A stretch of DNA of 64,000 nucleotides from Candidatus Caldarchaeum subterraneum (GCA_000270325.1 BA000048.1:1346700-1410699); one strand, 5' to 3'; numbered from the stretch's first letter, positions 7,506-36,725 are shown. Notes: generated by a model not told the origin, from the letters alone. Translations and numbers: made by a program.

Positions 7506-8837
7506 TTGGTTTCCGACGTTGTTTCATCGGAGGATATGATGGTTTGGGATGAGAACTCTGGCTACATGGGTGTTTCGAGGCTTATGCTGATGGAGAACGC
7601 GGGTGCGGCTGTGGCTCGTCAACTTGTCTCTCATCTTGGTCAAGCCGCTGGAAAAAAGGTGCTCGTTTTATGTGGGCCAGGTAATAACGGGGGGGACGGG
7701 TTAGCTGCGGCACGTCACCTCGCCTGTATTGGCGCCGACGTAACCGTGTTTCTTCTCGCGGAGCCGGAGAAGATAAGAACTGTTGAGGCGCGGGTGAATT
7801 TTGAAGCTGTCCAGAACATGAGGGCTTCTATAAGGCTGTTTACTGTAGACACTGTTGAGAAGCTTCTCGAGCTTGCTAACGTGTTTGAGGAGGTTGACGC
7901 CGTTGTTGACGCTGTGCTTGGGACGGGTGCGAAACCAGGTCTTCCCGACCTCTACAAGACGGCGATAAAGCTCTCCAACGCCGTGAACTGCACACGGCTC
8001 GCCGTCGACCTGCCTACTGGCCTTGACACCGACACAGGCGAAGGAGAAACATACTTTGAACCAGACATAATCGTGGCTCTTCACATGAAAAAGCCTGTGC
8101 ATCAGAAGTTTGTCGAGAAAACGGTTGTGGAGCCGATTGGGATGCCGCCTGAAGCATCTTTTCTCGCCGGCCCTGGGCAGCTTAGGCTTTTGCTGAAGAA
8201 GATTGGTTTGGGCAAGCTTTCATCGGCTCGGCTTGCGTATGTCTTTGGGGAGAAGGGCCCTGTTGACTATGTGCGGGATTTTCTCACGGGGTTGAAGGGC
8301 TCGACAACGTTCTGCAACCTAAACATGTTGGTGGATAACCCTGAGCTAAGATACGCTGTCGCATCCTCTCGCGCAGTACTCCTCTCCCCGGATGTAAGCC
8401 CGACTAGCATCAAGCCATTTCTTCCACGAAGCCAGCCCATAATACTCACCGCGCCCACCGGCTTCCTCACAAACCCGATTTACGTCCTCTGGAGCGATAA
8501 GCCTATGCTCCAAGATTTCAGGGAAAAGCATCGTGATTATCTAAAGGACGTTGAGGAGCTGTGTAGAAAACTGGCGGCACCTGTGTATGTTGTGGGCGAG
8601 GTGGACATGCTCTCCAACGGTGTCAAGTCTCTCGCCAACTGGCTGGGCAAGCCGATTAAGCAGAGTCACTTCCCTTACGCTGCGGCTCTGGTGGCATGGT
8701 TCGTTTCATCGGGGGCGGACCCGCTTCTCTCTATGGCATCCGCTAGCTATTTGCTACGCTCAGCCGAGCTACCGCTGCTCGAAAACCCGAAAAACCTCGC
8801 CGACTATGTTCACAGCTCTATCGAGCGGCTGGCCTGA
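7506..8837 (+). CDS. nnr: NAD(P)H-hydrate epimerase (YjeF_N) fused to a divergent YjeF_C-like domain
   Basis: N-terminal LMENAGAAVA...CGPGNNGGDGLAAARHL is the YjeF_N signature. The C-terminal ~220 aa aligns only loosely with the carbohydrate-kinase-like dehydratase half. TATA TTTATATAAA lies at 7463-7472. Confidence 0.7.
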   Translation: MVSDVVSSEDMMVWDENSGYMGVSRLMLMENAGAAVARQLVSHLGQAAGKKVLVLCGPGNNGGDGLAAARHLACIGADVTVFLLAEPEKIRTVEARVNFEAVQNMRASIRLFTVDTVEKLLELANVFEEVDAVVDAVLGTGAKPGLPDLYKTAIKLSNAVNCTRLAVDLPTGLDTDTGEGETYFEPDIIVALHMKKPVHQKFVEKTVVEPIGMPPEASFLAGPGQLRLLLKKIGLGKLSSARLAYVFGEKGPVDYVRDFLTGLKGSTTFCNLNMLVDNPELRYAVASSRAVLLSPDVSPTSIKPFLPRSQPIILTAPTGFLTNPIYVLWSDKPMLQDFREKHRDYLKDVEELCRKLAAPVYVVGEVDMLSNGVKSLANWLGKPIKQSHFPYAAALVAWFVSSGADPLLSMASASYLLRSAELPLLENPKNLADYVHSSIERLA

Positions 8838-19386: not shown

Positions 19387-20163
19387 ATGTTCGGGTTTCT
19401 GCGCAGAAAAGACGACTGGGTTGTCGAAGAGCAGCCTGAGCCACAGCCGTTCGAGATCACTGAAGAATTTAGGGCGAGGGTTGAGAAAGCGGTAACATCC
19501 CTAAACGCGCATATCGAGAGGCTCAACAACAAGTACAGAGACATGCTCGCGAGAAGCCGTGAATACTTTAACAGAACAGTAGAAGCACTTCAAGCCAAAG
19601 ACGACGCAAAAGCCAAGCTCTATGCATCGGAGATCGCGGAGATTAAGAAACTCGCGGGCATCGTGCTTCACAGCCAACTCGTGCTGCTGCAGGTCAAGAT
19701 AAGGCTTGAAAGCATTCTTGAACTCGGGGAAGCCCTCACACTGCTCAAACCACTGGCAACACTGCTCGAAAACGTGGCCGAGGAGATAAGCTACGTGACA
19801 CCGGAGGCATCGGAGCATCTCCGAAGCCTGATGGTGATGATTGACGATTTCATGGCAACCGCGGGCGTCTACGTTGAGCCCTCATCGGAGAAGATGCCCG
19901 AGTTTTCGGAGGAGGCCTCCTTCATTCTAGAGGAGGCGAGGAAAATCGCGGCCGAGAAGGTGCGGGAGACGTTCCCCGAGGCGCCGAGGCTAACTGATGT
20001 TGAAAAAGCTGTCTACGAGTATGTCTTGGGAGCAAATATCGAGGAGCTTGACCTGGAGACGTGCGCCAACGCTCTTAGCCTCGACCCTGAAACAGTCTCA
20101 AACATATTGAAGAACCTACATGAAAAAGGCCTGATACAGCTGGAGTTCGCTGAAACCACTTAG
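19387..20163 (+). CDS. cdvB: CdvB, ESCRT-III (Snf7-family) protein with C-terminal winged helix
   Basis: About 190 aa of helical ESCRT-III-like core, an acidic linker, then a wH (VEKAVYEYVLGANIEELDLETCANALSLDPETVSNILKNLHEKGLIQLE). Tail-to-tail with cdvC. TATA AGATTATTAAC lies about 25-30 nt upstream. Confidence 0.8.
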   Translation: MFGFLRRKDDWVVEEQPEPQPFEITEEFRARVEKAVTSLNAHIERLNNKYRDMLARSREYFNRTVEALQAKDDAKAKLYASEIAEIKKLAGIVLHSQLVLLQVKIRLESILELGEALTLLKPLATLLENVAEEISYVTPEASEHLRSLMVMIDDFMATAGVYVEPSSEKMPEFSEEASFILEEARKIAAEKVRETFPEAPRLTDVEKAVYEYVLGANIEELDLETCANALSLDPETVSNILKNLHEKGLIQLEFAETT

Positions 20164-21302
20164 GTGCCGTGTTTAGAGTTCCAGTCAAGCAGCTTTTTCA
20201 GGTTCTCAAGCACCACTGATTGCTTTCTCTTCTTTATTATCTCCATGAAGTCATCCATGGTTATCGGCCTCGGCTCTCCTTTCTCACCTGTGTTTGATGC
20301 AAAAAATTCGCTGACCACTTTCAACTGAGCCTCCATGCAGATGTCGTGGATGTCTGCGGCGGAGTAGCCGTCGGTTATTTTAGCCAGTTGGGAGAGCTCG
20401 ACACCGGCTTCGAGACGCAGGCCTTTGGTGTATTTCTCGAAGAGCATTATTCTCGCATCTATGTCGGGCAAGGGCACGAAAATCCGTTTCTGAAACCTTC
20501 TGATGAATGGTTCGTCTAGGTGCCATGGCTTGTTTGTGGCCGCTAATACGTAGAGAAAATCCCGCCGCCCTTTGTCGAGGATGCCGTCCATCTCCTTGAT
20601 TAACTGGTTTCTAACACGCGCCTCTCCACCGACCTCCATAAACCTCTCCGCGGTCAGCGAGTCGATTTCATCGATGAAGATGATGCAGGGCTTCCCATTT
20701 CTCGCCTCCTGCCTGCACTGGTTGAAGATTTTTGAGACGTTTCGCTCAGACTCGCCCAGCCACTTTGACATGATGGAGGCCGCGTCAAGAACGTAGAAGC
20801 TTGCGTCAAGCTCCGCAGCCACGGCAGCCGCCAGCAGTGTTTTGCCGCAGCCCGGAGGGCCGAATAACAGTATTCCACGTGGCCAGCCAAGCGGGAAAAG
20901 GTCGGGTCTCCTCGTGGGGAAAACTATGCTCTCCCGTATTGCTTTCTTCGCCTCCTCGATGTTGACGATGTCGTCCCAGCTCACGTTTGGTTTCTCACTC
21001 TGAAGCTGCTGCCGCGGCTGCGGCGACTGCTCGGCAAAAGTATCCACCCGCACAGAGGGTCCTTCAACACCGTTCTGAAGCTCCTCAATCCTAGCCTGAT
21101 ACTCCTTGATCTTCTCCGCGTATATGCGCTTAACCGTGCCATCGGGGCTGAGGCGGTAAAGTTTCCACAACACGTCTATCGCCTCGCGGTACGACTTTAT
21201 CGCCTTGTGACGCTGCCCGCTCCTATCATACTGAACAGCTTCACGGGCCCTCGAGGCAGCTATCCTCTCCAGCTCCTGAGACATATCCAAACCAGCCGAC
21301 AA
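20160..21302 (-). CDS. cdvC: CdvC / Vps4 AAA+ ATPase with N-terminal MIT domain
   Basis: MIT-like three-helix N-terminus, Walker A GPPGCGKT, Walker B IIFIDEID, and Vps4-type C-terminus. Confidence 0.9.
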   Translation of the reverse strand: MSAGLDMSQELERIAASRAREAVQYDRSGQRHKAIKSYREAIDVLWKLYRLSPDGTVKRIYAEKIKEYQARIEELQNGVEGPSVRVDTFAEQSPQPRQQLQSEKPNVSWDDIVNIEEAKKAIRESIVFPTRRPDLFPLGWPRGILLFGPPGCGKTLLAAAVAAELDASFYVLDAASIMSKWLGESERNVSKIFNQCRQEARNGKPCIIFIDEIDSLTAERFMEVGGEARVRNQLIKEMDGILDKGRRDFLYVLAATNKPWHLDEPFIRRFQKRIFVPLPDIDARIMLFEKYTKGLRLEAGVELSQLAKITDGYSAADIHDICMEAQLKVVSEFFASNTGEKGEPRPITMDDFMEIIKKRKQSVVLENLKKLLDWNSKHGT

Positions 21303-21456
21303 GGCGTCAACTCTTTATATCTTATCGCAGCAACGACTCACCGTAATAGCCGATAACATACAAGGCTATGTCCTCGGGCATATTTGAAGCCGGTTGAAGC
21401 GTGATGTTTGAGGGAATTTATATTATAGCCAGAAGCTGGCCCCGCGGGAAGGAAAG

Positions 21457-23211
21457 TTGTCAACATCTGCGGAGGCTCGGCCGAAGCCTTACATCAGGGA
21501 GGTTATTCTGGAGAATTTCATGTCTCATGAGTATAGCCGGATACCTCTTCGCAGGGGGCTTAACGTGATTGTGGGGCCTAATGGGGCGGGGAAATCCTCG
21601 ATACTGCTGGCTATTTCTGTCGCGCTCGGTCAAACCTACACCGAGAGAGGCCAGAGGCTGGCTGACCTCATTCGTAGAGGTTACGAGTCGGCGAGGGTTG
21701 CGGTTGTTTTTGACAACAGGCCCGTGGACGGCGTCCGCCCCATACCCTCGATAAACTCCGACACCGTGACCATAACACGTTTCCTCAAAAAAACGGGCGA
21801 ATACTGGCACTATGTAAACAATCGTTTCAAGACAAAGGCCGAGGTCGGTAACCTTCTCTCAAGGATTGGGATAAACCCAGACAACGTACTCATCATCATG
21901 CATCAGAACATGATTGAGCAGTTTGTGAGCCGAGACAGCAGGGAGAAGCTAGCGTTGATAGAGGAGGCTGTTGGTGCCGCTGGACTGAGGGAAAGAATCA
22001 GGGACACCGAGGCGAAGCTCTCAGCATTATTGGCGGAAGAGGCTGTGCTGCGTAAAACCCTTGACGAGGCACGCTCCGCAGTCGAGTTCTGGAGAGAAGA
22101 ATACGAGAAACTCACCATTCTTCGGCGTCTCGAGGAGCGGAGAAAACTCCTTGAGCTAGAGTATCTCTGGTCACTTGTCAGAGAGGCCGAGAAGTCGAGG
22201 GAAAGGCTTGAGGAGAAAATTGAGAGCATCAGAAGGGAAACCGAGAGCCTTGAGGCGAAAATTACAGAGGCGCGTAACACGGTCTCCACATATTACCAGT
22301 CGCTGGTGAAAGGGCTGAGAGAGGGCTGGAGTGAGAGGGTTTTGATGGAGACGGTTGACGGAATAGTGGCTGCGGCGGAGTCGCTGGGCCGTTTTCTCGA
22401 GAGACGAGAGATACGGGAGGATGAGCTGAGGCAGCTCCGCTACGAGGTCACTGCTCTGGACAAGGAGATTATCCGTAGACGCGGGGAAGCCGAGGCCAAG
22501 GGGCCGCGGACGGATACTGGACGAAAGCCCGCCGAAGTCTCGGAGGAGATAAAGGCAGTGGGCCTCCAGATAGCGGCCCTCGGAACACCCAACCCTCAGG
22601 CGGAGGAGATGTATCTCATAGCCGAGTCAAAATACCGTGAAGCCGAGCTAAAGGCCCAGCAGCTCAGTGAAAACGCGAAGAAAACCATGGCCGAGGTAGA
22701 GTATAGGAAGCAGAAATGGGCCGAGTTCGTAAGAGAGCTCGTCAACTCTGTTGAGCCAGAGTATCAGCATATCCTCTCCTTGGTCGGAGGCGCTGGAAAG
22801 ATTGAGCTACGAAACCTCCACGACATAGACAAGGCTTCTATCGAGATATACGTAGGGTTCCGCGGGGTCGAGCCAACTCTTCTCGACACCCATACACAGA
22901 GCGGTGGAGAGCGAATAGTCGCGACCATGGCTTTTCTCCTCGCCGTCCAGAAACACATCAAATCACCGTTCAGAGCCGTCGACGAGTTCGACGTACACCT
23001 CGACCCTCTAAACCGCGAGAGAATAATCCACATACTCACGTCCTCTGCGAAGAACGACCCAAATACACAGTACATAGTTATCACTCCCGGCCGGGTGCCT
23101 TTCACAGAGGAGATGAACGTGATAATAGTGCAGAGCGTTAAGGGGAAGTCAGCTGTGCTTGTCCCCGCTCAGACGGAGGTGGTTTCGGGTGACGAGCGTC
23201 AAGGTGGCTAG
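21457..23211 (+). CDS. Short SMC-like ABC ATPase with SMC5/6-type head motifs; no hinge and no zinc hook
   Basis: ILENFMSH...GPNGAGKSS (Walker A, nt 21574-21600), Q-loop MHQN, signature QSGGER (from nt 22897), and Walker B/D-loop AVDEFDVHLDPLNR (from nt 22981). About 270 heptad-rich residues separate the head halves. The protein contains no cysteine. TTG start, with TATA AATTTATATTATAG about 30 nt upstream. Confidence 0.8.
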   Translation: MSTSAEARPKPYIREVILENFMSHEYSRIPLRRGLNVIVGPNGAGKSSILLAISVALGQTYTERGQRLADLIRRGYESARVAVVFDNRPVDGVRPIPSINSDTVTITRFLKKTGEYWHYVNNRFKTKAEVGNLLSRIGINPDNVLIIMHQNMIEQFVSRDSREKLALIEEAVGAAGLRERIRDTEAKLSALLAEEAVLRKTLDEARSAVEFWREEYEKLTILRRLEERRKLLELEYLWSLVREAEKSRERLEEKIESIRRETESLEAKITEARNTVSTYYQSLVKGLREGWSERVLMETVDGIVAAAESLGRFLERREIREDELRQLRYEVTALDKEIIRRRGEAEAKGPRTDTGRKPAEVSEEIKAVGLQIAALGTPNPQAEEMYLIAESKYREAELKAQQLSENAKKTMAEVEYRKQKWAEFVRELVNSVEPEYQHILSLVGGAGKIELRNLHDIDKASIEIYVGFRGVEPTLLDTHTQSGGERIVATMAFLLAVQKHIKSPFRAVDEFDVHLDPLNRERIIHILTSSAKNDPNTQYIVITPGRVPFTEEMNVIIVQSVKGKSAVLVPAQTEVVSGDERQGG

Positions 23212-23953
23212 GGAGGAGCTGGAGAGGCTTATCGCCTTATGTGAAGCCGTCGCAAAGTCGGGAACTGACCCGTATAACCTTGACGTGAAAGCGATGCTCA
23301 GCAAGCTGCGTGGCATTTTGGAGAAATCCCGGAACGCAGAGGTTCTGGTCCTCGACGCAGAGACGCTCTACAGAATAGCTGTTGTGGTGGCGCTTCAGCA
23401 TAAATGGCTCAAGGACAGGGCCAACTCCCTTTTCCTCGACAGCCAAGTTATAGCTCTCAAGATAGCTTCGTCGGACAAGAAATCGCTAGCAGCAGCGTTT
23501 GTCTCCAGCTGGAGGCCCATCCTCTACACCGAGCAACTCACCATACACATGCTCAACATGGGTCTGGAGCATTTCCTCAGCCTACCCACGCGTGGAGAGG
23601 AAACAGCCGAGGAGACGCTGCCTTCAGAGGGCCTTGCCCTAGAGAACCTGTCTAAGACTTTTTCTCAGTATGAGCGGCTCGAGGAAGACGTTAGAAGGAT
23701 TCACGGGGAGCTGCTGGAGGCTAGGGATGTTGATGGGAGTGTGGATTATCTTAAGTTCATCAACGCCGAGGGCCCTTCTAAGGTTGTTGAGAGAGCTTTT
23801 CTTACAGCTTTTGTGGTAAGCGAAGGATACGCTGATTTGAAAAAGAACCCGTTGACGGGCGAGGTACGCATCATACCTTATACCGAGAAGGTGAAACGAA
23901 GCAGCGTCGCCTCGCTTGTTGTAACGGTCAAAGGTGGTGAACTCGTTGTCTGA
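23159..23953 (+). CDS. Kleisin-like (ScpA/Nse4-like) protein
   Basis: The N-terminal helical segment (DPYNLDVKAMLSKL...AETLYRIAVVVALQHKWL) resembles the ScpA N-terminus. The C-terminal segment (VDYLKFINAEGPSKVVERAFLTAFVVSEGYADLKKNPLTGEVRIIP) resembles the kleisin C-terminal wH. It overlaps the SMC-like stop. GTG at 23189 or 23204 is the likelier start. Confidence 0.55.
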   Translation: MSPLRRRWFRVTSVKVAREELERLIALCEAVAKSGTDPYNLDVKAMLSKLRGILEKSRNAEVLVLDAETLYRIAVVVALQHKWLKDRANSLFLDSQVIALKIASSDKKSLAAAFVSSWRPILYTEQLTIHMLNMGLEHFLSLPTRGEETAEETLPSEGLALENLSKTFSQYERLEEDVRRIHGELLEARDVDGSVDYLKFINAEGPSKVVERAFLTAFVVSEGYADLKKNPLTGEVRIIPYTEKVKRSSVASLVVTVKGGELVV

Positions 23954-24521
23954 ACAGAAGCCAGAACAGTCCACGGCGAGAAAACGTCTACAAACAGCCA
24001 TGGCCATGCTGCTCTTCACAAGCCATAGACTACCCGGGGTACGTGGCTACGAGCTGCGGCGAAGACTGGGCAAAAACTATCTCAAAGTCATCGAGGCCCT
24101 CAACCACAGGCTTGAGCCGATGGGGCTGCGTGTAAAGATTTTGTTCGAAACTGTTGTCGAGCAGCCGGGTGAGGAGGATTATGATAGAGCGAGGTATTTC
24201 ATCACGTTGGCGGAGCCTTTGACTCTTTCGGAGGTTGTTGCCGCGGGGTGGCGTGTTGATGAGTTGGCTGTCTTGGCTGCGGCCTTGGCGCTGCTTTTCT
24301 CAAGGGGTGGAAAGGCTCCGCGGAAAGATGTGATGGAGCTTCTGGAGGCTAAGATGCCGAAGTGGAGGGTTGAATCGGCCCTGGAGAAGTTTATGCGACG
24401 AGGCTATCTCGTTGACTCGGGTGACGGTGTTCTCTCCGTGGGTTGGAGAGCTGTTGCAGAGGTTGATCAGAAGCAGCTGCTCAAGGCCTTGACAGACCTA
24501 CAGACACGGGAAGTCACCTAA
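23934..24521 (+). CDS. Tandem winged-helix kite-like protein (ScpB / MAGE-Nse3-like)
   Basis: Two wH-like halves. LAVLAAALALLFSRGGKAPRKDVMELLE and VGWRAVAEVDQKQLLKAL recall my memory of the MAGE homology domain motifs GNxAPEEEIWEEL and WGPRAxAExxKxKVLEFL. 20-nt overlap with the preceding ORF. Confidence 0.5.
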   Translation: MVNSLSEQKPEQSTARKRLQTAMAMLLFTSHRLPGVRGYELRRRLGKNYLKVIEALNHRLEPMGLRVKILFETVVEQPGEEDYDRARYFITLAEPLTLSEVVAAGWRVDELAVLAAALALLFSRGGKAPRKDVMELLEAKMPKWRVESALEKFMRRGYLVDSGDGVLSVGWRAVAEVDQKQLLKALTDLQTREVT

Positions 24522-27381
24522 ACATACTCTGGATGCGTTGTTTCTCAGCATCGACAATCAGCTCCACAAGCCTAACACCGACAGAGCTCTCCTTCTCAAG
24601 GATAGCCGCGGCCTCCTCGATGTCTAGATATTTGCTGGCCAGGGTGAAGACAGCAGCTTTCCCATACTTCTCAACCAGCTTGGAGGTTGCCAAGGCCCTT
24701 CGCCGCATTTGTCTCTCAACACTGTTAACAGGCTTCCCCTTCCTAGAGACAAGATTCATCACAGCCTCCGGCTCCTCTCTCAATACACCGAGACGTCTTG
24801 AGCCACATGACCCACAGCTGGGCCACTGCTCCAGCTCCCGCACCAAACTCCTACCGAACCAGTTCCAGCAAACGGTGCAAACGAGCGTCACAGGCTCGTT
24901 GTTAAGTCGTCCGCGGACGGCGTTGACAACCAGCCTCTGCAAACGCTCCGACGCAATCACATCGATGTCGCTTGCGTATCTCTTGACCGTTAAACTCGTT
25001 AGCGGCGAGGGTTCGAGAAGCCTTACGACTGTTAGCTCTAGTTCTCCTGAGTAGATGCTTTTTAGAAGATTGTGGGCTTTCTCGGGTTCAAAATCAGCTA
25101 GAAAACAGTGCTGTAAAGCCTCCTCATATGTGACTGTGTCCTTCAAAACATCCGCAAGCTTGGCTGTGTCGATGTCCAGCAGGCTCGCGTCCTTCGCTAT
25201 CATCCCCATCTTACGGGCGACGTGGACAAGTCTTCTCCTGAACAGGCTAGACGACTCAACCGCTTTCCTGAAGCTCTCCCACCAGCTCCGTTCATCTGCA
25301 AGATTTTTCACAGCGTTGAGCACGGCGTCAGCGGTTATTTCACGTGACTTGTAGACGATTCTATATGCATCCTGCTGGACGGTGACGGCTGTTCCCAGCT
25401 CGGAGGAGACTTGGTAAGCGATTGTGCGGGCCAAGGTTCTGTTGACCTTAAGGCCTCCGCAGACATGTAGCACGACGTATTCAGGTGTCTCCTCGAGCAT
25501 CACAAGCCTGTCCGATGGGACTGGCAAACCCTGTTCATGATGCATCTTAACTTCTCTCAGCGACTTCTTCAACAGCGTTGTGGATGTGCGGTATTGTTGG
25601 GCAAGCATCTCGAGAGCCTTTTCCTCTTCACCGTTAGACAGGGCCTCGGCATATGTTCTCCTTATTGCTCCGACTTCCTGTGCCACCTCGTAGGGAACAG
25701 GTATTTCTTCCCCGACCCATGAGGGAACAGCTCCCTCGAGGCTGTCGAGCTGTGCCACGTAAATGCGTTCACCACCAGTCTGTATGATTTCCCACGCCTT
25801 TCCCATCAATATGAAGCGTGTTCCGGGTTCACCGTATTCGGCGACAAACTCTTCATCAAGTATGCCGACGGCTTCGCCTGTCGACTCGTTGACTACAAGA
25901 TACTGTTTCTCCTCTGGTATCATGGTGAGGTTGTTGAAATAGTATTCGTAGAGGATGTTGGTTCTGGGAGGTGTCTCAAGGATGTTGTCCGAAGTGAGAA
26001 CGGCTGCTCCAAGCTTCTCTAGATGCTGAGCTGTTTTCAAAAGCTGCTCCATGGTGAAGTTTCTGTAGCAGTAGGAGCGTTGGAAAATCTTGAGAGCATC
26101 CTCTAGTTTGACACGTTTCCGCTCGATGAGCAATCCCGCGAGCTGATGCGCCGCGACGTCATAGCTGTTCTCAAACACTGTGACATCTTCTATCAAGTCG
26201 CTGTAGGCTCTTCTGATGATTGCGAGGCTTTCCAACGCGTCGTCCGAGTCTGTGACGATGATAACACCTTTTGCTGTGCCTGAGACGGTGTGGCCGCTTC
26301 TGCCCACACGCTGGACAAGCCTTGTCACCTCACGGGGGGAGTTGTATTGGATGCATAGTTCTATGCGGCCCACGTCGATGCCCATCTCGAGGGATGAGGT
26401 GCATATGACTCCCGAGAGGCCTCCTGCCTTCAGGGCCTGTTCAGCGCCTATGCGGGTGGATTTGGCGAGGCTTCCATGATGTATGCCTATTGGTGCCGCT
26501 TCGTCCCATGCCCTGAACCTGTTGGTCAAAATCTCTGAGAGCGGCCTTGTGTTGGTAAAGACAAGGGTGGACTCGTGCTGTTCAACGAGTCTTCTGATTA
26601 GACTGAGCCTCGCGGCCACCTCGGGATGAACAGAGAGCTTCTCAGCCAATTCGTAATCATTTTCGTCGGGGTCGGGATACTCCACCGAGAGCTGAAGCGA
26701 CTTGGATAATGGCACCCTCACCACCGCGCAGCTTCTTCCATGGCCCACGAGAAACTGTGCAATTTTCTCAGGCGTCCCCACAGTGGCCGACAAACCTATC
26801 CTCTGAAAATCTCTCCCAGTTATCTCCACAAGCCGTTCCAACGCGAGGGAAAGCTGGCTGCCTCTCTTGTCACCTGCGAGTTCATGCACCTCATCGACCA
26901 CAACGGCCTCAACACGTTTCAGATACTGCCTCAATATCCGAGCTGTCAAAAGTATCTGAAGCGTCTCAGGAGTGGTTATCAGGATGGTCGGCGGCGAGAG
27001 GGCCTGGGCTCGTCTTTCCCGCTGGCCTGTGTCGCCGTGTCTCACGCCCACCGTCATGTCGAAGCGGCTCGCCCACCACTCTATTCTGTCGAGAAGGTCA
27101 CGGTTAAGGGCCCTTAGCGGCGTTATGTAGAGGATTTTCACACCTTCAAAAGAAGATGACAGCAGCAGGTTGTTGATTAGGGGGATGAGTGCGGCCTCTG
27201 TTTTGCCTGTTCCGGTCGGAGCCATCAATAGAATGTTCTCACCGTTCAATACATGTGGAATGGCCTGTATCTGCGGAAGAGTGAGGTCGCTAAACCTCTC
27301 CAGCACAGCGTCTCGCAAAACTTTCGCTAAGCTGTTGAGGACCTCAAGCCCTTCCTTGGACGCTTTCACCCGATTCTTCAC
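24514..27381 (-). CDS. lhr: Lhr-family large ATP-dependent DNA helicase
   Basis: SF2 motifs MAPTGTGKTEAAL, DEVHEL, SATVG, TSSLEMGIDVG and QRVGRSGH, followed by a long DEAD-associated C-terminal region with a CxxC...CxxC zinc ribbon. Confidence 0.85.
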   Translation of the reverse strand: MKNRVKASKEGLEVLNSLAKVLRDAVLERFSDLTLPQIQAIPHVLNGENILLMAPTGTGKTEAALIPLINNLLLSSSFEGVKILYITPLRALNRDLLDRIEWWASRFDMTVGVRHGDTGQRERRAQALSPPTILITTPETLQILLTARILRQYLKRVEAVVVDEVHELAGDKRGSQLSLALERLVEITGRDFQRIGLSATVGTPEKIAQFLVGHGRSCAVVRVPLSKSLQLSVEYPDPDENDYELAEKLSVHPEVAARLSLIRRLVEQHESTLVFTNTRPLSEILTNRFRAWDEAAPIGIHHGSLAKSTRIGAEQALKAGGLSGVICTSSLEMGIDVGRIELCIQYNSPREVTRLVQRVGRSGHTVSGTAKGVIIVTDSDDALESLAIIRRAYSDLIEDVTVFENSYDVAAHQLAGLLIERKRVKLEDALKIFQRSYCYRNFTMEQLLKTAQHLEKLGAAVLTSDNILETPPRTNILYEYYFNNLTMIPEEKQYLVVNESTGEAVGILDEEFVAEYGEPGTRFILMGKAWEIIQTGGERIYVAQLDSLEGAVPSWVGEEIPVPYEVAQEVGAIRRTYAEALSNGEEEKALEMLAQQYRTSTTLLKKSLREVKMHHEQGLPVPSDRLVMLEETPEYVVLHVCGGLKVNRTLARTIAYQVSSELGTAVTVQQDAYRIVYKSREITADAVLNAVKNLADERSWWESFRKAVESSSLFRRRLVHVARKMGMIAKDASLLDIDTAKLADVLKDTVTYEEALQHCFLADFEPEKAHNLLKSIYSGELELTVVRLLEPSPLTSLTVKRYASDIDVIASERLQRLVVNAVRGRLNNEPVTLVCTVCWNWFGRSLVRELEQWPSCGSCGSRRLGVLREEPEAVMNLVSRKGKPVNSVERQMRRRALATSKLVEKYGKAAVFTLASKYLDIEEAAAILEKESSVGVRLVELIVDAEKQRIQSMFR

Positions 27382-34124: not shown

Positions 34125-36725
34125 GTGCGGACAACGCTAACACTGTTACTGATAATCGCCTTGACGCTTCCGGCCGCCACATCAACCAAGCCAGACAAAT
34201 TCACCGAAATCACCATCCCTTTGCAGAGTGTATCCGAGGAGGTTTCCATCGCCCAGACATCCAGCGGCTCTATCGAGGTTTTGGGTGCCTGGGGAAAGAA
34301 AACACTCAGCGTCTATCTCTACTCCTCCGGATCCGCCGCTTTGGATGAGGCCGCGAGAAGAGGTGTGGAGGTTTGGTATGGAAGCATCAGGGCATTTGTC
34401 CAAGAATATGGCTACAACTATCTTCTCTCACTATCTATGACCTTTGTCACACGCGATGAAGACGCAGACATAACTATACGCTATGTCTCGACGCTGGGAG
34501 GGAACATCTGCGGAGTAACTACGATTAGGTATGGGGGCTTCCTCTATGAAATAGTCAGCGCCACCATACAGATTTCGAGGGCATGCGTAGGCTCTGACGC
34601 CGAACTCGCCTACAAGGTGGTGGCGCACGAGTATGGACACGCTCTCGGCATAGGCCATTCAAGCAACCCAGTTGACCTCATGTATGAGAGGGTAAACACA
34701 GCAACCTATCCATCAACGCTAAACGTTTACGCGCTTGCGGTCGCCTATTCATGGGCCGAAGACAATCTCTACAGACCTCCCCCCACTCGTTCAATAAACT
34801 CGCTCCCCTCATCCATAGAATACAAACAGCTTCCACCACTTACAGAGATACGTCAGGTACGAGTCTACCTCCAGTCGGAGCTTGGGCGACTTCTTCTCAA
34901 CACCTACGCCCTGCCTCGTGGAACAGTTTTTAGACAGGTCGCAGAGGTGGAGAAAATTTTCGGCAACAGGACCAAGCTGGTTTTTGACCGCTGGGTTGTC
35001 AACGACATGAGCGCGAGCCGTTCGCCGACTCTCCAGGTTCGTGTTGAAGACGATACGGAGATTGTTGCGGTTTACAGTGTCTTCTACTTTGTAAGGGTTC
35101 AATTGTTTGAAGAGCTGGTGTCGGGCTGGTATCGTTTTGGTGAGGAGCTGCCGGTTACGGCGAGGGAGTTCATCAACTTTGAGAACGCTACACGAATGGT
35201 CTTCAGTGGATGGAGCGACGGGGTAGACCAGCCTGCTAGGAAAATCGTGGTCGACGGTCCGGTCGACATAGAGGCCCTTTACCTCCGCCAGTATCTTGTT
35301 CAGGTAGATTCCTCCGTTGATGTTTTCGAGGGTGAGGGCTGGTATAACGAGGGCGAGAGAGCTGAGATTGTTGTGGTGAGTAAGATGGTGTACCTGGGGG
35401 ATGATGTGCGTCTGCGTCTCTTCAACATGTCTCTACCCAGTGGTGGCGAGGTTGATGACGATGTGATACGTTTCATGGTCCATGGTCCTGTGACGGTTAC
35501 GGTGGATTGGGTGAAGGAGTACAGGGTTGTGGCGAGGGCCACCCACGGCGATACCAGTTTGTTTGACGGCTGGGTTGCTGATGGAACGGTTTTGAACCTG
35601 CAGGCCCCGCCTGAGATTACGTGGAACAACGGCACAAAAGCACTCTTCCAGGGCTGGAGGCCAGTGGACAATTCCAGCCCCCTTTTATCCATCACAGTCG
35701 ACAAGCCCTTGAACCTGCTGGCTCAATACGATGTCTACTACTTTGTCCAAGTGGTTTCCCTTTTTCCTGTGAATGTTTCAACTGGCTGGGTTAAGAGAGG
35801 TGACATCATTTTGCTCGACCCCGGTCCGCGGCTCAGAATGCATGGAGAAGGTGTCCGCAGCCGTTTCATGGGATGGGAAAAGATTGGGAACCAGACAAGC
35901 ATAACAGTTGAGGGACCGTTAACAGTTGAGGCGGTATGGGTCGAAGAAGCAAGGCTGCTGGTGAAAGGTCTTAACGAAGAAGCGGAAAGCTGGCACTTTT
36001 TGGGGGAGACTGTCCAGCTAGCCGCTGAAAAGCTTGTGGAAACAGAACCCGGTAGAAGATTTCTTTTCCTTGGATGGGGTGGCGACATCGAGAGTAAGGA
36101 GCCCGAGATAACGGTGGTTGTTGATGGCCCGAAATTCTTGAAACAGGTTTACCGCGAAGAGGCGTTGGTTGAATTTGTTTTCGTCGACGCTGAAGGTTTT
36201 CTCGTCCCAGCGGAAATGGTCCTGCGCGATGAAGCGAACCAGCATGAATATGTTCTAAAACCTTTGGATAAGCTTTGGCTTCCGACTGGAGAATACATGG
36301 TGGAGAAAATCAGCTTTAACTCCGCCGATGTCAAGACATCAGCGGAACTCCGCGTAACTGGCCCGGGGCGCTTCAACATTCCTGTGCGTGTTTACCGTGT
36401 GGAGGTCGATGTGTCAGATTTGCTGGGGTTGCCGCTTGCTGGTGCAAGGGTCACGCTCGTGAACAGCATGGGCGTGGCCGAGGTCTCTGGAGTGGTTGAC
36501 CGAGCTGGCCGGCTTGTCCTCCACCCTGTCAGCCATGACGCGAAGACTGCCGTGCTTGACTACGTTTTCTGGAGCCAAAAGGTTGCCTTAGAGCCGGAGA
36601 CGGGGCATGCTTTTGTCCGGGCTGGTGTATCGCTTCAAACCCTACTTATCCTGGCTGCCGTTTTAGCGGTTTTCTCAACAGCTTTGATAAAGGCTAAAGA
36701 GAGACGCATGAGGAGACTTGGCTGA
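34125..36725 (+). CDS. Membrane-anchored secreted metzincin (matrixin-like) metalloprotease with six F-x-GW repeat domains
   Basis: Signal peptide, then HEYGHALGIGH (H168-H178, nt 34626 onward) plus a downstream Met-turn candidate DLMY. Repeats are marked by FDRW, FSGW, FDGW, FQGW, FMGW and FLGW. A carboxypeptidase-regulatory-like beta domain and a C-terminal TM plus basic tail follow. Confidence 0.7.
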   Translation: MRTTLTLLLIIALTLPAATSTKPDKFTEITIPLQSVSEEVSIAQTSSGSIEVLGAWGKKTLSVYLYSSGSAALDEAARRGVEVWYGSIRAFVQEYGYNYLLSLSMTFVTRDEDADITIRYVSTLGGNICGVTTIRYGGFLYEIVSATIQISRACVGSDAELAYKVVAHEYGHALGIGHSSNPVDLMYERVNTATYPSTLNVYALAVAYSWAEDNLYRPPPTRSINSLPSSIEYKQLPPLTEIRQVRVYLQSELGRLLLNTYALPRGTVFRQVAEVEKIFGNRTKLVFDRWVVNDMSASRSPTLQVRVEDDTEIVAVYSVFYFVRVQLFEELVSGWYRFGEELPVTAREFINFENATRMVFSGWSDGVDQPARKIVVDGPVDIEALYLRQYLVQVDSSVDVFEGEGWYNEGERAEIVVVSKMVYLGDDVRLRLFNMSLPSGGEVDDDVIRFMVHGPVTVTVDWVKEYRVVARATHGDTSLFDGWVADGTVLNLQAPPEITWNNGTKALFQGWRPVDNSSPLLSITVDKPLNLLAQYDVYYFVQVVSLFPVNVSTGWVKRGDIILLDPGPRLRMHGEGVRSRFMGWEKIGNQTSITVEGPLTVEAVWVEEARLLVKGLNEEAESWHFLGETVQLAAEKLVETEPGRRFLFLGWGGDIESKEPEITVVVDGPKFLKQVYREEALVEFVFVDAEGFLVPAEMVLRDEANQHEYVLKPLDKLWLPTGEYMVEKISFNSADVKTSAELRVTGPGRFNIPVRVYRVEVDVSDLLGLPLAGARVTLVNSMGVAEVSGVVDRAGRLVLHPVSHDAKTAVLDYVFWSQKVALEPETGHAFVRAGVSLQTLLILAAVLAVFSTALIKAKERRMRRLG

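Follow-up and report, generated by a model that had tools for sequence, protein, structure and literature searches.

Organization of the operon and its neighborhood

Within the 64,000-nucleotide window from the hot-spring archaeon Candidatus Caldarchaeum subterraneum analyzed here, three overlapping genes on the plus strand encode a 584-aa SMC ATPase (ORF1), a 254-aa kleisin (ORF2) and a 195-aa tandem winged-helix kite (ORF3; Table 1). Translational coupling of the three genes, proposed in an earlier note made from this DNA sequence, agrees with the measured overlaps, that between ORF2 and ORF3 being exactly 20 nt as had been claimed. The same note had ORF2 overlap the ORF1 stop and encode about 250 aa. 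Both points stand, but the start needed correction: the longest reading frame begins at TTG 23159, whereas alignment with 28 homologs, mostly 254 aa in length, identifies GTG 23189 as the true start, with a GGAGG located 9 nt upstream. With this start ORF2 comprises 254 aa, and it overlaps ORF1 by 23 nt.

The operon lies in an ordinary chromosomal context with uniform GC content and housekeeping genes as neighbors. No Toprim/JetD, Mre11, HerA or NurA gene is present among the flanking genes, and neither the operon nor its flanks contain a gene for a further subunit (second SMC, second kite, Nse2, Nse5/6). The 154-bp region that separates ORF1 from the divergent cdvC gene contains a TATA-like element some 35 nt ahead of the ORF1 start and is a putative promoter. 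The lack of Toprim/JetD, Mre11, HerA and NurA neighbors and the divergent region shared with cdvC had been described correctly before.

Table 1. Features of the operon and adjacent genes. Positions are counted from the first nucleotide of the window.
Feature	Position	Strand	Details
cdvC	20160-21302	-	divergent, upstream of ORF1
Intergenic region cdvC/ORF1	21303..21456	.	154 bp
TATA-like TTTATATTATA	21417-21427	.	~35 nt upstream of ORF1 TTG start
ORF1, hinge-less SMC5/6-related SMC ATPase	21457..23211	+	TTG start, 584 aa
ORF1 N-terminal head half	21493..21972	+	residues 13-172; Walker A and Q-loop MHQN
ORF1 Walker A GPNGAGKSS	21574-21600	+	residue 40
ORF1 ascending arm helix	21979..22323	+	residues 175-289, ~115 residues, ~17 nm; AF2 secondary structure
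ORF1 arm apex, 3-residue turn	22324..22332	+	residues 290-292; position expected for a hinge or zinc hook
ORF1 descending arm	22333..22779	+	residues 293-441; AF2 secondary structure
ORF1 C-terminal head half	22789..23127	+	residues 445-557; signature, Walker B/D-loop, ITPG at H-loop position
ORF1 signature QSGGER	22897-22914	+	residue 481
ORF1 Walker B/D-loop AVDEFDVHLDPLNR	22975-23016	+	residue 507
ORF2, predicted Nse4-type kleisin	23189..23953	+	GTG start, GGAGG before start, 254 aa
ORF2 C-terminal winged helix (Nse4_C match)	23753-23887	+	residues ~189-233
ORF3, predicted Nse1/Nse3 (MAGE)-type tandem winged-helix kite	23934..24521	+	GTG start, 195 aa
Lhr-type helicase gene	24514..27381	-	tail-to-tail with kite gene, 8-nt overlap; Pfam DEAD, DEAD_assoc, WH_Lhr

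A survey of related genomes, as suggested in the earlier note, found the genes for SMC, kleisin and kite as a contiguous triad at 59 of 68 informative loci, and the kleisin gene adjoins the kite gene in 72 of 76. The arrangement is not due to chance, since dozens of genomes keep the three genes together. CdvC occurs in 9 of 80 loci, eight of which are Caldarchaeum-type loci with CdvC located divergently upstream of the SMC gene; the cdvC link is confined to the genus Caldarchaeum. On the 3' side lies the gene for an Lhr-type helicase, a neighbor absent from the earlier note. Lhr is convergent at a distance of at most 500 bp from the kite gene in 29 of 64 informative loci, found in Caldarchaeales, Bathyarchaeia and Methanomethylicia, and it is missing from about half of the loci. 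Given its convergent orientation it is not co-transcribed with the operon, and we consider it a conserved neighbor outside the operon and a possible functional partner.

The head of ORF1 resembles SMC5 and SMC6

ORF1 possesses the split ABC head of the SMC family. In addition to the motifs listed in Table 1, ILENFMSH is located at residue 17 and the Q-loop MHQN at residue 148, such that the head is complete as originally described. It matches Pfam SMC_N with an E value of 2e-36, and in the AF2 model (pLDDT 84.7) its fold matches SMC heads. The best Foldseek match was 5xei, an engineered Pyrococcus Smc construct consisting of head, coiled coil and joint; the DNA clamp state of the yeast complex (7tve) was also among the matches.

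Several comparisons point to an affinity of these heads with SMC5 and SMC6. A phmmer search of the PDB with ORF1 returned Smc5 (1e-35) followed by Pyrococcus Smc (4e-30), Smc6 (1e-29) and Rad50 (1e-8). With the profile of the ORF1 family, Smc5 and Smc6 scored 153-178 bits, compared to 124 for archaeal (Pyrococcus) Smc, 98 for Smc3 and 45 for Rad50, and the ten top distinct PDB sequences were all Smc5 or Smc6, outscoring Rad50 and all remaining SMCs. When 1.84 billion representatives were searched exhaustively, 55 archaeal representatives ranked first, and the named proteins that were looked up in the tier below are without exception SMC5, SMC6 or eukaryotic members of the SMC family. The likeness to SMC6 and SMC5 noted earlier for ILENFMSH and DEFDVxxDxxNR is real in alignments with actual eukaryotic sequences: NFMSH aligns with NFMCH of SMC6, DEFDVHLDPLNR with DEFDV[FY]MDxVNR, and ITPG with LTPQ of SMC6 and TPKLL of SMC5. 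A rough neighbor-joining tree of the heads, restricted to the archaeal ORF1 family and eukaryotic SMC5/6 to the exclusion of other SMC classes, separated archaeal from eukaryotic sequences with 76% bootstrap support and carries no information on placement relative to other SMCs. In published trees the Caldarchaeum SMC falls in the SMC5/6 clade (van Hooff et al., bioRxiv 10.1101/2024.01.07.573240). Sequence comparison thus supports the view that the ORF1 heads are closer to SMC5 and SMC6 than to other SMCs or Rad50.

The arms of ORF1 lack a hinge and a zinc hook

Between the head halves, some 260-270 residues are predicted by AF2 to fold into a hairpin of antiparallel helices that is closed by a 3-residue turn and contains no globular insert. 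The descending arm is broken at residues 349-357 and 376-381, and these breaks flank a short helix, which gives rise to a joint-like discontinuity; the same arm contains a conserved loop, KGPRxxTxRKP. The long arm ending in a globular hinge that is part of the description of SMC proteins is therefore missing from ORF1. Pfam SMC_hinge did not match ORF1, and the AF2 model contains no Gly-rich or globular element at the apex. A zinc hook is absent because ORF1 has no cysteine. This agrees with the earlier description of about 270 heptad-rich residues with neither a Gly-rich hinge nor a CxxC zinc hook. As modeled, ORF1 is shown to be a reduced SMC consisting only of a head, a neck, a joint and a short distal coiled coil that closes in a tight turn. 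The short form is the norm in the family: 51 of 55 cluster representatives are smaller than 700 aa, none of these 51 has a mid-molecule CxxC, and the SMC ORFs at contiguous triad loci measure 576-681 aa.

RecN and similar hinge-less relatives of SMC proteins dimerize via their distal coiled coil. By this precedent the short arms of ORF1 might associate tip-to-tip to form a small closed ring or rod that entraps DNA topologically. The arm helices are amphipathic right up to the turn, and the single-chain AF2 model is compatible with such an arrangement. Moreover, some other members of this head family are equipped with a zinc hook or a hinge where ORF1 has its apex, from which it follows that apex dimerization is used in this family. 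We nevertheless consider tip-to-tip dimerization of ORF1 unlikely, if far from negligible. The apex is devoid of cysteine and of any Gly-rich or globular element, and it is the least conserved segment of the protein (0.39-0.47 versus 0.8-0.96 for the heads). It is also the sole site of internal indels in the family alignment, with insertions of 10-40 residues being tolerated and insertions occurring only after residues 292 and 294.

ORF2 and ORF3 are related to Nse4 and to Nse1/Nse3

The kleisin-like nature of ORF2 that had been noted before is upheld by a search of the PDB with the profile of its family, in which all seven matches are kleisins. Yeast Nse4 (1e-5) and human EID3/NSE4 (3e-5) came first, followed by the N- and C-terminal domains of ScpA (0.13-0.25). 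Of 30 family members, 22 matched Pfam Nse4_C (best E value 2.7e-8), and the link of the N-terminal kleisin domain to ScpA-N is weak at the sequence level (E=0.13). By its profile, ORF2 is a member of a kleisin family whose nearest relative is Nse4, and it is the predicted SMC partner.

Among 40 homologs of ORF3, Pfam SMC_Nse1 was matched in 17 and MAGE in 10 (best E value 8e-6). For the AF2 model of ORF3 (pLDDT 84) the top Foldseek matches were 5hvq, a MAGE-G1/NSE1 complex, and 7dg2, an Nse1-Nse3-Nse4 complex (6e-6 to 3e-4); JetB, in fifth to sixth position (1e-3), and MukE matched less well, and ScpB was absent from the top 50. The proposal that ORF3 resembles MAGE/Nse3 rather than ScpB holds accordingly: judged by its model, ORF3 is a kite of two tandem winged helices whose closest counterparts are NSE3/MAGE and NSE1. 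It contains no cysteine and thus no RING.

Smc-ScpAB follows the same logic of SMC, kleisin and tandem winged-helix kite, has a kleisin of similar size (~250 aa) and provides, with the Pyrococcus Smc fragment, the best structural match of ORF1. The operon might encode a diverged condensin-like Smc-ScpAB without specific kinship to SMC5/6. SMC_prok_A is indeed the best NCBIfam match of ORF1, albeit with 195 bits against a cut-off of 729 and in a library that contains no SMC5/6 model, and the ScpA matches of the kleisin profile, though weak, point in the same direction. All three subunits are nearer to SMC5/6 in sequence and fold, however, and ORF1 lacks the hinge. Smc5/6 scored 30-50 bits above archaeal Smc, Nse4 matched about 10,000-fold better than ScpA, neither Pfam ScpA (PF02616) in 30 kleisin family members nor Pfam ScpB (PF04079) in 40 kite family members was matched at E≤1, and the kite model matches NSE3/NSE1. 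In addition, a separate SMC-ScpB-ScpA cluster has been reported for C. subterraneum in the description of a related genome (Nunoura 2011), while the down-sampled table of van Hooff et al. lists ScpA-like and ScpB-like genes but no canonical SMC for Caldarchaeum. We thus regard kinship restricted to Smc-ScpAB as highly improbable, and the operon probably represents a second, specialized SMC system alongside canonical Smc-ScpAB.

Relationship to other SMC-like systems

Wadjet JetABC and MukBEF are likewise complexes of SMC, kleisin and kite, but their arms are long and end in hinges whereas those of ORF1 are short and hinge-less, and a MukF-type kleisin is lacking in the Caldarchaeum operon. A role as a Wadjet- or Lamassu-like system against plasmids or phages could be suspected from PADLOC matches of ORF1 to mad3 (1.5e-33) and LmuB (2.4e-23), of the neighboring helicase to BrxHI, an Lhr-family helicase, and from the structural match of the kite to JetB. 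The matches of ORF1 are generic for ABC ATPases, however, and PADLOC returned none, JetA and JetB included, for ORF2 or ORF3. A JetD/Toprim or LmuA effector was not found in the flanks, the neighbors are housekeeping genes with uniform GC content, and the synteny and the vertical conservation across the order differ from what a defense island shows, all of which leaves a defense function with very little probability.

In RecN, Rad50/ASRP (ClsN, Sph) and LmuB, as in ORF1, the head halves are separated by a short antiparallel coiled coil and an SMC hinge is missing, but these proteins are without kleisin or kite partners. Rad50 and ASRPs dimerize by a zinc hook and RecN by its coiled-coil tip, whereas ORF1, with its SMC5/6-like heads, lacks both a CxxC and a conserved tip. 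With the NCBIfam recN model ORF1 scored 32 bits, where the cut-off is 408. [quoted passage not shown]

The eukaryotic Smc5/6-Nse1-Nse3-Nse4 core shares with the Caldarchaeum operon the head motifs NFM[SC]H, DEFDVxxDxxNR and TP at the H-loop position, an Nse4-type C-terminal winged helix of the kleisin, and a MAGE/Nse1-type kite. It differs in having two SMCs (Smc5, Smc6) and two kites (Nse1, Nse3) where the archaeon has one SMC gene, whose product is presumably a homodimer, and one kite gene. Its arms are ~35-50 nm long and carry a hinge, as opposed to ~17 nm and none. The RING, the Nse2 SUMO ligase and the Nse5/6 loader of the holo-complex have no counterpart in the operon; heterodimeric SMCs, the Nse1 RING, Nse2 and Nse5/6 are considered eukaryotic additions (van Hooff et al., 10.1101/2024.01.07.573240).

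A proposed hinge-less DNA clamp

Taking these data together, the archaeal SMC5/6-related complex is likely represented in Caldarchaeum by this operon, in a hinge-less form that would act as a DNA clamp gated by ATP. If Smc5/6-Nse1/3/4 and Smc-ScpAB serve as a guide, two copies of ORF1 would assemble with one kleisin and two kites. One SMC would be bound at its neck by the N-terminal helical domain of the kleisin, and the other at its cap by the C-terminal winged helix of the kleisin. ATP would be sandwiched between the two heads, and the kite-kleisin module would clamp DNA on top of the engaged heads, as in the structure solved for yeast (7tve). With arms that are open at the far end, the compartment formed by kleisin and heads would be the only closed one, which argues for an ATP-gated DNA clamp or sensor and not for a hinge-closed ring or long-range loop extruder. 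[quoted passage not shown]

A role in DNA repair or replication stress appears most plausible because of the SMC5/6 affinity and the conserved Lhr neighbor, and the clamp may be linked to this helicase. More tentatively, and with somewhat more doubt than confidence, we extend this to Caldarchaeales, Bathyarchaeia and Methanomethylicia, which would possess an SMC5/6-type complex without arm-tip dimerization, held together by kleisin and ATP only and partnered by Lhr, with the apex module (none, zinc hook or hinge) being exchanged within the head family. If this is true, the DNA clamp formed by head, kleisin and kite is a self-sufficient functional unit, and the partnership with Lhr ties it to the repair of stalled forks or broken DNA.

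Relation to previous work

The assumption that a dedicated kleisin and kite had not been characterized for such a mini-SMC proved incorrect. Archaeal operons of an SMC5/6-related SMC, an Nse4-like kleisin and an Nse1/3-like kite were described bioinformatically by Yoshinaga & Inagaki (2021) and van Hooff et al. (2024/25, bioRxiv 10.1101/2024.01.07.573240), and the Caldarchaeum operon combines the same three families, in the same operon organization and in the same lineages (TACK archaea). In these studies, SMC-kleisin adjacency was found in 2 of 9 species, as compared with the 59 of 68 loci counted here for the triad, the coiled coils were removed for phylogeny, and the complex was drawn with an SMC dimerized by a hinge, unlike the hinge-less Caldarchaeum form. 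We found no mention in either study of the hinge-less form of ~580-680 aa that most members adopt. Hence, the family is known, and its lack of a hinge seems to be unreported. For C. subterraneum, the table of van Hooff, Raas, Tromer & Eme lists one SMC5/6-related SMC, one Nse1/3-related kite and zero Nse4-related kleisins; the kleisin is present as ORF2.

Organization of the operon and its surroundings

Three overlapping genes for an SMC ATPase (ORF1, 584 aa), a kleisin (ORF2, 254 aa) and a tandem winged-helix kite (ORF3, 195 aa) form the operon. Its surroundings are even in GC content and contain housekeeping genes for SufBD, a thermosome subunit, an acyl-CoA dehydrogenase and chorismate synthase. 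The GTG start of ORF2 was assigned by alignment with 28 homologues, nearly all of which comprise 254 aa, and is preceded by GGAGG at a distance of 9 nt. ORF2 therefore overlaps the 3' end of ORF1, including its stop, by 23 nt, and ORF3 overlaps ORF2 by 20 nt; both overlaps agree with the earlier note.

The nearest named proteins belong to Caldarchaeum MAGs (65–78% identity), and the same locus is present on L001, a contig that GTDB lists as Ca. Caldarchaeum subterraneum (kite identity 98%). Neither a canonical smc-scpAB nor Rad50 or Mre11 is encoded within the 64-kb window, whose remaining large ORFs specify a metallopeptidase-like protein, Lhr, a thermosome subunit and similar proteins. A defence-system reading of the operon was considered and rejected. 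The 866-aa ORF located directly upstream of chorismate synthase has a short matrixin/zincin motif as its sole match.

Features of the operon, of neighbouring genes (window coordinates) and of the ORF1 AF2 model (residues)
Feature	Position	Strand	Remarks
Coiled-coil protein, 258 aa	19387-20163	+	winged helix at C-terminal end; CdvB-like layout
CdvC/Vps4	20160-21302	-	MIT, AAA, Vps4_C; convergent with 258-aa coiled-coil protein
cdvC-ORF1 spacer			154 bp, genes divergent; TATA-like element ~35 nt upstream of ORF1 start
ORF1	21457-23211	+	SMC ATPase gene
ORF2	23189-23953 (longest reading from 23159)	+	kleisin gene; start GTG 23189
ORF3	23934-24521	+	kite gene
Lhr-type helicase	24514-27381	-	DEAD, DEAD_assoc, WH_Lhr; tail-to-tail, 8-nt overlap with kite 3' end
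866-aa ORF	34125-36725	+	
ORF1 N-head	residues 13-172		
ORF1 single continuous helix	residues 175-289		
ORF1 3-residue turn	residues 290-292		
ORF1 descending arm	residues 293-441		two breaks flanking short helix 358-375
ORF1 C-head	residues 445-557		

SMC5/6 affinity of the three subunits

ORF1 contains every ATPase motif quoted in the earlier note and matches Pfam SMC_N at 2e-36. As a single sequence compared with the PDB it retrieved yeast Smc5 (1e-35), Pyrococcus Smc (4e-30) and Smc6 (1e-29), with weaker matches to Smc3 (~1e-20) and Rad50 (1e-8). When a family profile built from 40 sequences was used instead, the top ten distinct PDB sequences were all Smc5 or Smc6 (153–178 bits), followed by Pyrococcus Smc (124 bits), Smc3 (98), Smc2 (96), Smc1 (82), Smc4 (76) and Rad50 (45). 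When 1.84 billion cluster representatives were searched exhaustively with HMMER, an archaeal family of 55 representatives came first (E down to 1e-84); proteins of 1040–1200 aa came next, and the named ones that were checked are eukaryotic SMC5, SMC6 or SMC-family proteins. In the alignment with these eukaryotic sequences, NFMSH of ORF1 corresponds to NFMCH of SMC6 and DEFDVHLDPLNR to DEFDV[FY]MDxVNR of SMC6, QSGGER is the same in ORF1 and SMC5, and ITPG occupies the position of TPKLL in SMC5 and LTPQ in SMC6. The likeness to SMC6 motifs described in the earlier note is thus real, and profile ranking, HMMER search and motif alignment all support an SMC5/6-like head.

Taken individually, ORF2 and ORF3 gave Pfam matches too weak to be informative by themselves (Nse4_C, E=0.17, and SMC_Nse1, E=0.049, respectively); these became convincing only after family-wide scans and profile searches. 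With a Caldarchaeales ORF2 profile, the PDB match to yeast Nse4 had an E-value of 0.0024. A broader profile of 30 members, including Bathyarchaeia and Methanomethylicia, reached 1e-5 for yeast Nse4 and 3e-5 for human EID3, which is an NSE4 paralogue. Apart from these, the broader profile matched nothing but N- and C-terminal domains of ScpA (0.13–0.25), so that all seven PDB matches are kleisins. Nse4_C is found in 22 of the 30 family members (best 2.7e-8) and Pfam ScpA in none of them. In the alignment a variable linker separates a conserved helical region at the N-terminus from a conserved domain at the C-terminus, which is the layout of a kleisin.

Among 40 ORF3 homologues, 17 match SMC_Nse1 and 10 the MAGE homology domain (best 8e-6), with no match to Pfam ScpB. 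AF2 models ORF3 as a tandem winged helix (pLDDT 84). Foldseek gave this model four significant matches, all of them to chains of either 5hvq (MAGE-G1/NSE1 complex) or 7dg2 (Nse1-Nse3-Nse4 complex); JetB and MukE rank next, and ScpB is missing from the top 50. The proposals that ORF2 is kleisin-like and that ORF3 is nearer to MAGE/Nse3 than to ScpB are therefore supported.

ORF1 lacks a hinge

In the AF2 model of ORF1 (mean pLDDT 84.7) the ascending helix and the descending arm are joined by a turn of three residues. Its top PDB match in Foldseek is 5xei, an engineered 'head + coiled coil + joint' fragment of Pyrococcus Smc, followed by Smc5/6 head structures. Column conservation within the family is 0.8–0.96 in the heads, 0.64–0.79 in the neck and 0.39–0.47 around the apex, the arm tip where a hinge or zinc hook would sit, and internal insertions in family members occur at the apex only. 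Because of the modelled layout and the poorly conserved, insertion-bearing apex, ORF1 is a natural SMC that ends shortly past the joint and has no hinge, zinc hook or conserved tip. The absence of hinge and zinc hook had been noted before and is consistent with both the short turn and the complete lack of cysteine, which we confirmed.

Conservation of the gene triad

With each GTDB species represented by a single genome, a scan with the kite profile yielded 544 confirmed loci, the best 80 of which were examined; these are distributed over Caldarchaeales, Bathyarchaeia and Methanomethylicia. [quoted passage not shown] The SMC ORFs measure 576–681 aa (median 588), and when the family is clustered at 50%, 51 of its 55 representatives fall below 700 aa. 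Since the operon is conserved with SMCs of this size and nearly all representatives are short, the hinge-less form is the rule in the clade and no truncation artefact.

A few loci deviate. In L032, L037 and L071, all from uncultured Nitrososphaeria MAGs, 2.5–3.3 kb separate the SMC from the kleisin gene; the insert inspected, that of L032 (2652-5149), contains two unrelated ORFs that by eye resemble metabolic enzymes, namely an aldolase of the HpcH type and a dehydrogenase of the Ldh_2 type. L052, L056 and L061 contain a solitary kite gene (~7970-8590) with no SMC or kleisin gene within 8 kb upstream; in L052, the locus inspected, this kite gene adjoins the genes for arginyl-tRNA synthetase (ArgRS) and ABCE1. 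These three may represent split operons or kite paralogues. The exceptional loci were treated as rearrangements or paralogues rather than as a sign of extra subunits.

The convergent Lhr-kite pair is found within 500 bp in 29 of 64 informative loci of Caldarchaeales, Bathyarchaeia and Methanomethylicia. Divergence of cdvC from the SMC gene is confined to Caldarchaeum-type loci (8 of 9 loci having CdvC), and because of this limitation to the genus Caldarchaeum the linkage was rejected as a functional clue. The 258-aa coiled-coil protein gave no Snf7/ESCRT-III Pfam match at E<=1.

Relation to published work

Yoshinaga & Inagaki (2021) defined 'SMC5/6-related aSMC' proteins, mostly from TACK archaea, using input sequences of 500–1500 aa from which coiled coils had been stripped. 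Nse4-related kleisins and Nse1/3-like kites of TACK and Asgard archaea, encoded in operons with SMC5/6-related SMCs, were described by van Hooff et al. (bioRxiv 10.1101/2024.01.07.573240; 2024, v2 2025), who suggested that the entire complex was duplicated ancestrally. For Caldarchaeum subterraneum, their Supplementary Table 3 records a single SMC5/6-related SMC and a single Nse1/3-related kite, together with a ScpA-like and a ScpB-like gene side by side; an Nse4-related kleisin is not listed. Nunoura et al. (2011) reported an SMC-ScpB-ScpA cluster in this organism. Judged from these two sources, which concern a related genome, a canonical Smc-ScpAB is probably encoded outside the window. Given the published assignments, the evolutionary identification of the family is not new. 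The SMC5/6-type reading of the earlier note is supported; its claim to novelty is not. We found no mention of the absent hinge in Yoshinaga & Inagaki (2021), in van Hooff et al. or in their supplementary material, and searches of openly accessible full texts turned up no SMC5/6 or archaeal 'mini-SMC' that naturally lacks a hinge and has both kleisin and kite. A hinge-less architecture that retains both partners is therefore apparently an unreported variant, and one that is worth experimental follow-up.

Possible mode of action

SMC complexes are usually pictured as hinge-closed rings, and in models of loop extrusion and DNA entrapment the hinge and long arms are essential. A widespread, vertically inherited SMC which has kept its kleisin and kite and ends just past the joint offers a natural experiment for asking what the head/kleisin/kite module achieves alone. 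This SMC is also small and thermostable, properties that recommend it for structural and single-molecule studies. It has a bearing, too, on where eukaryotic SMC5/6 and MAGE proteins came from, an evolutionary link that has already been published.

By analogy with Smc5/6-Nse1/3/4 and Smc-ScpAB, one kleisin would bridge two ORF1 molecules, its N-domain binding the neck and its C-terminal winged helix the cap, and would carry two kites. ATP would engage the ORF1 heads, and the kite/kleisin module would clamp DNA against the head surface. Hinge-less sub-complexes of yeast Smc5 and Smc6 associate only in the presence of ATP (Taschner et al. 2021, PMC8327961), and for this reason kleisin and ATP may be the sole links between the two ORF1 copies. 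Alternatively, the arms might dimerise tip-to-tip as in RecN; this is the main rival explanation, yet we consider it rather unlikely as the apex is unconserved and tolerates indels. In the arrangement linked by kleisin and ATP, arms of ~17 nm would be open at the top and would not enclose a hinge-closed SMC lumen, and the complex should, if the analogy holds, act as a clamp gated by ATP or as a sensor of DNA structure. A role in DNA repair or replication stress is suggested by the SMC5/6 affinity and, through synteny only, by the Lhr-type helicase.

Relatives with other arm tips

That the apex varies among members of one head family suggests that dimerisation modules of SMC proteins can be exchanged in evolution. 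The cluster representatives P0294, P0310 (both from Bathyarchaeota) and P0318 are long-armed proteins of ~1016–1047 aa that share the SMC5/6-like head family and 38–40% identity with ORF1. Common to all three is a mid-molecule motif, I[KRT]C[DE][KR]CGS, a putative zinc-hook-like CxxC resembling that of Rad50/ASRP. At L082, the P0294 locus and the sole zinc-hook-type locus examined, the SMC gene has neither a kleisin nor a kite gene beside it.

P0322 (982 aa) has a globular insert of ~170 aa at the apex, and its gene is followed by homologues of ORF2 (E=9e-30) and ORF3 (2e-31), with an Lhr gene nearby (L081, 4001-8248). The insert has no meaningful PDB sequence match and no Pfam SMC_hinge, and is therefore termed only a 'globular insert at the hinge position'. 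By its Pfam match (4.6e-11), P0350 (835 aa) contains an SMC_hinge; at its locus (L083, 4001-7632) a kite homologue is located downstream (7e-13), and the 211-aa product of the middle gene is barely detectable by the kleisin profile.

A rough NJ tree was computed from 293 head columns with eukaryotic SMC5/6 as the root. In this tree the hinge-type long forms are basal, which would bear on the polarity of hinge loss; with a bootstrap of just 40% for the short-form crown, this branching is suggestive only. The zinc-hook trio is monophyletic in 98% of the replicates and the short forms alone in 0%, and nesting of the trio inside the short forms is robust in this head alignment.
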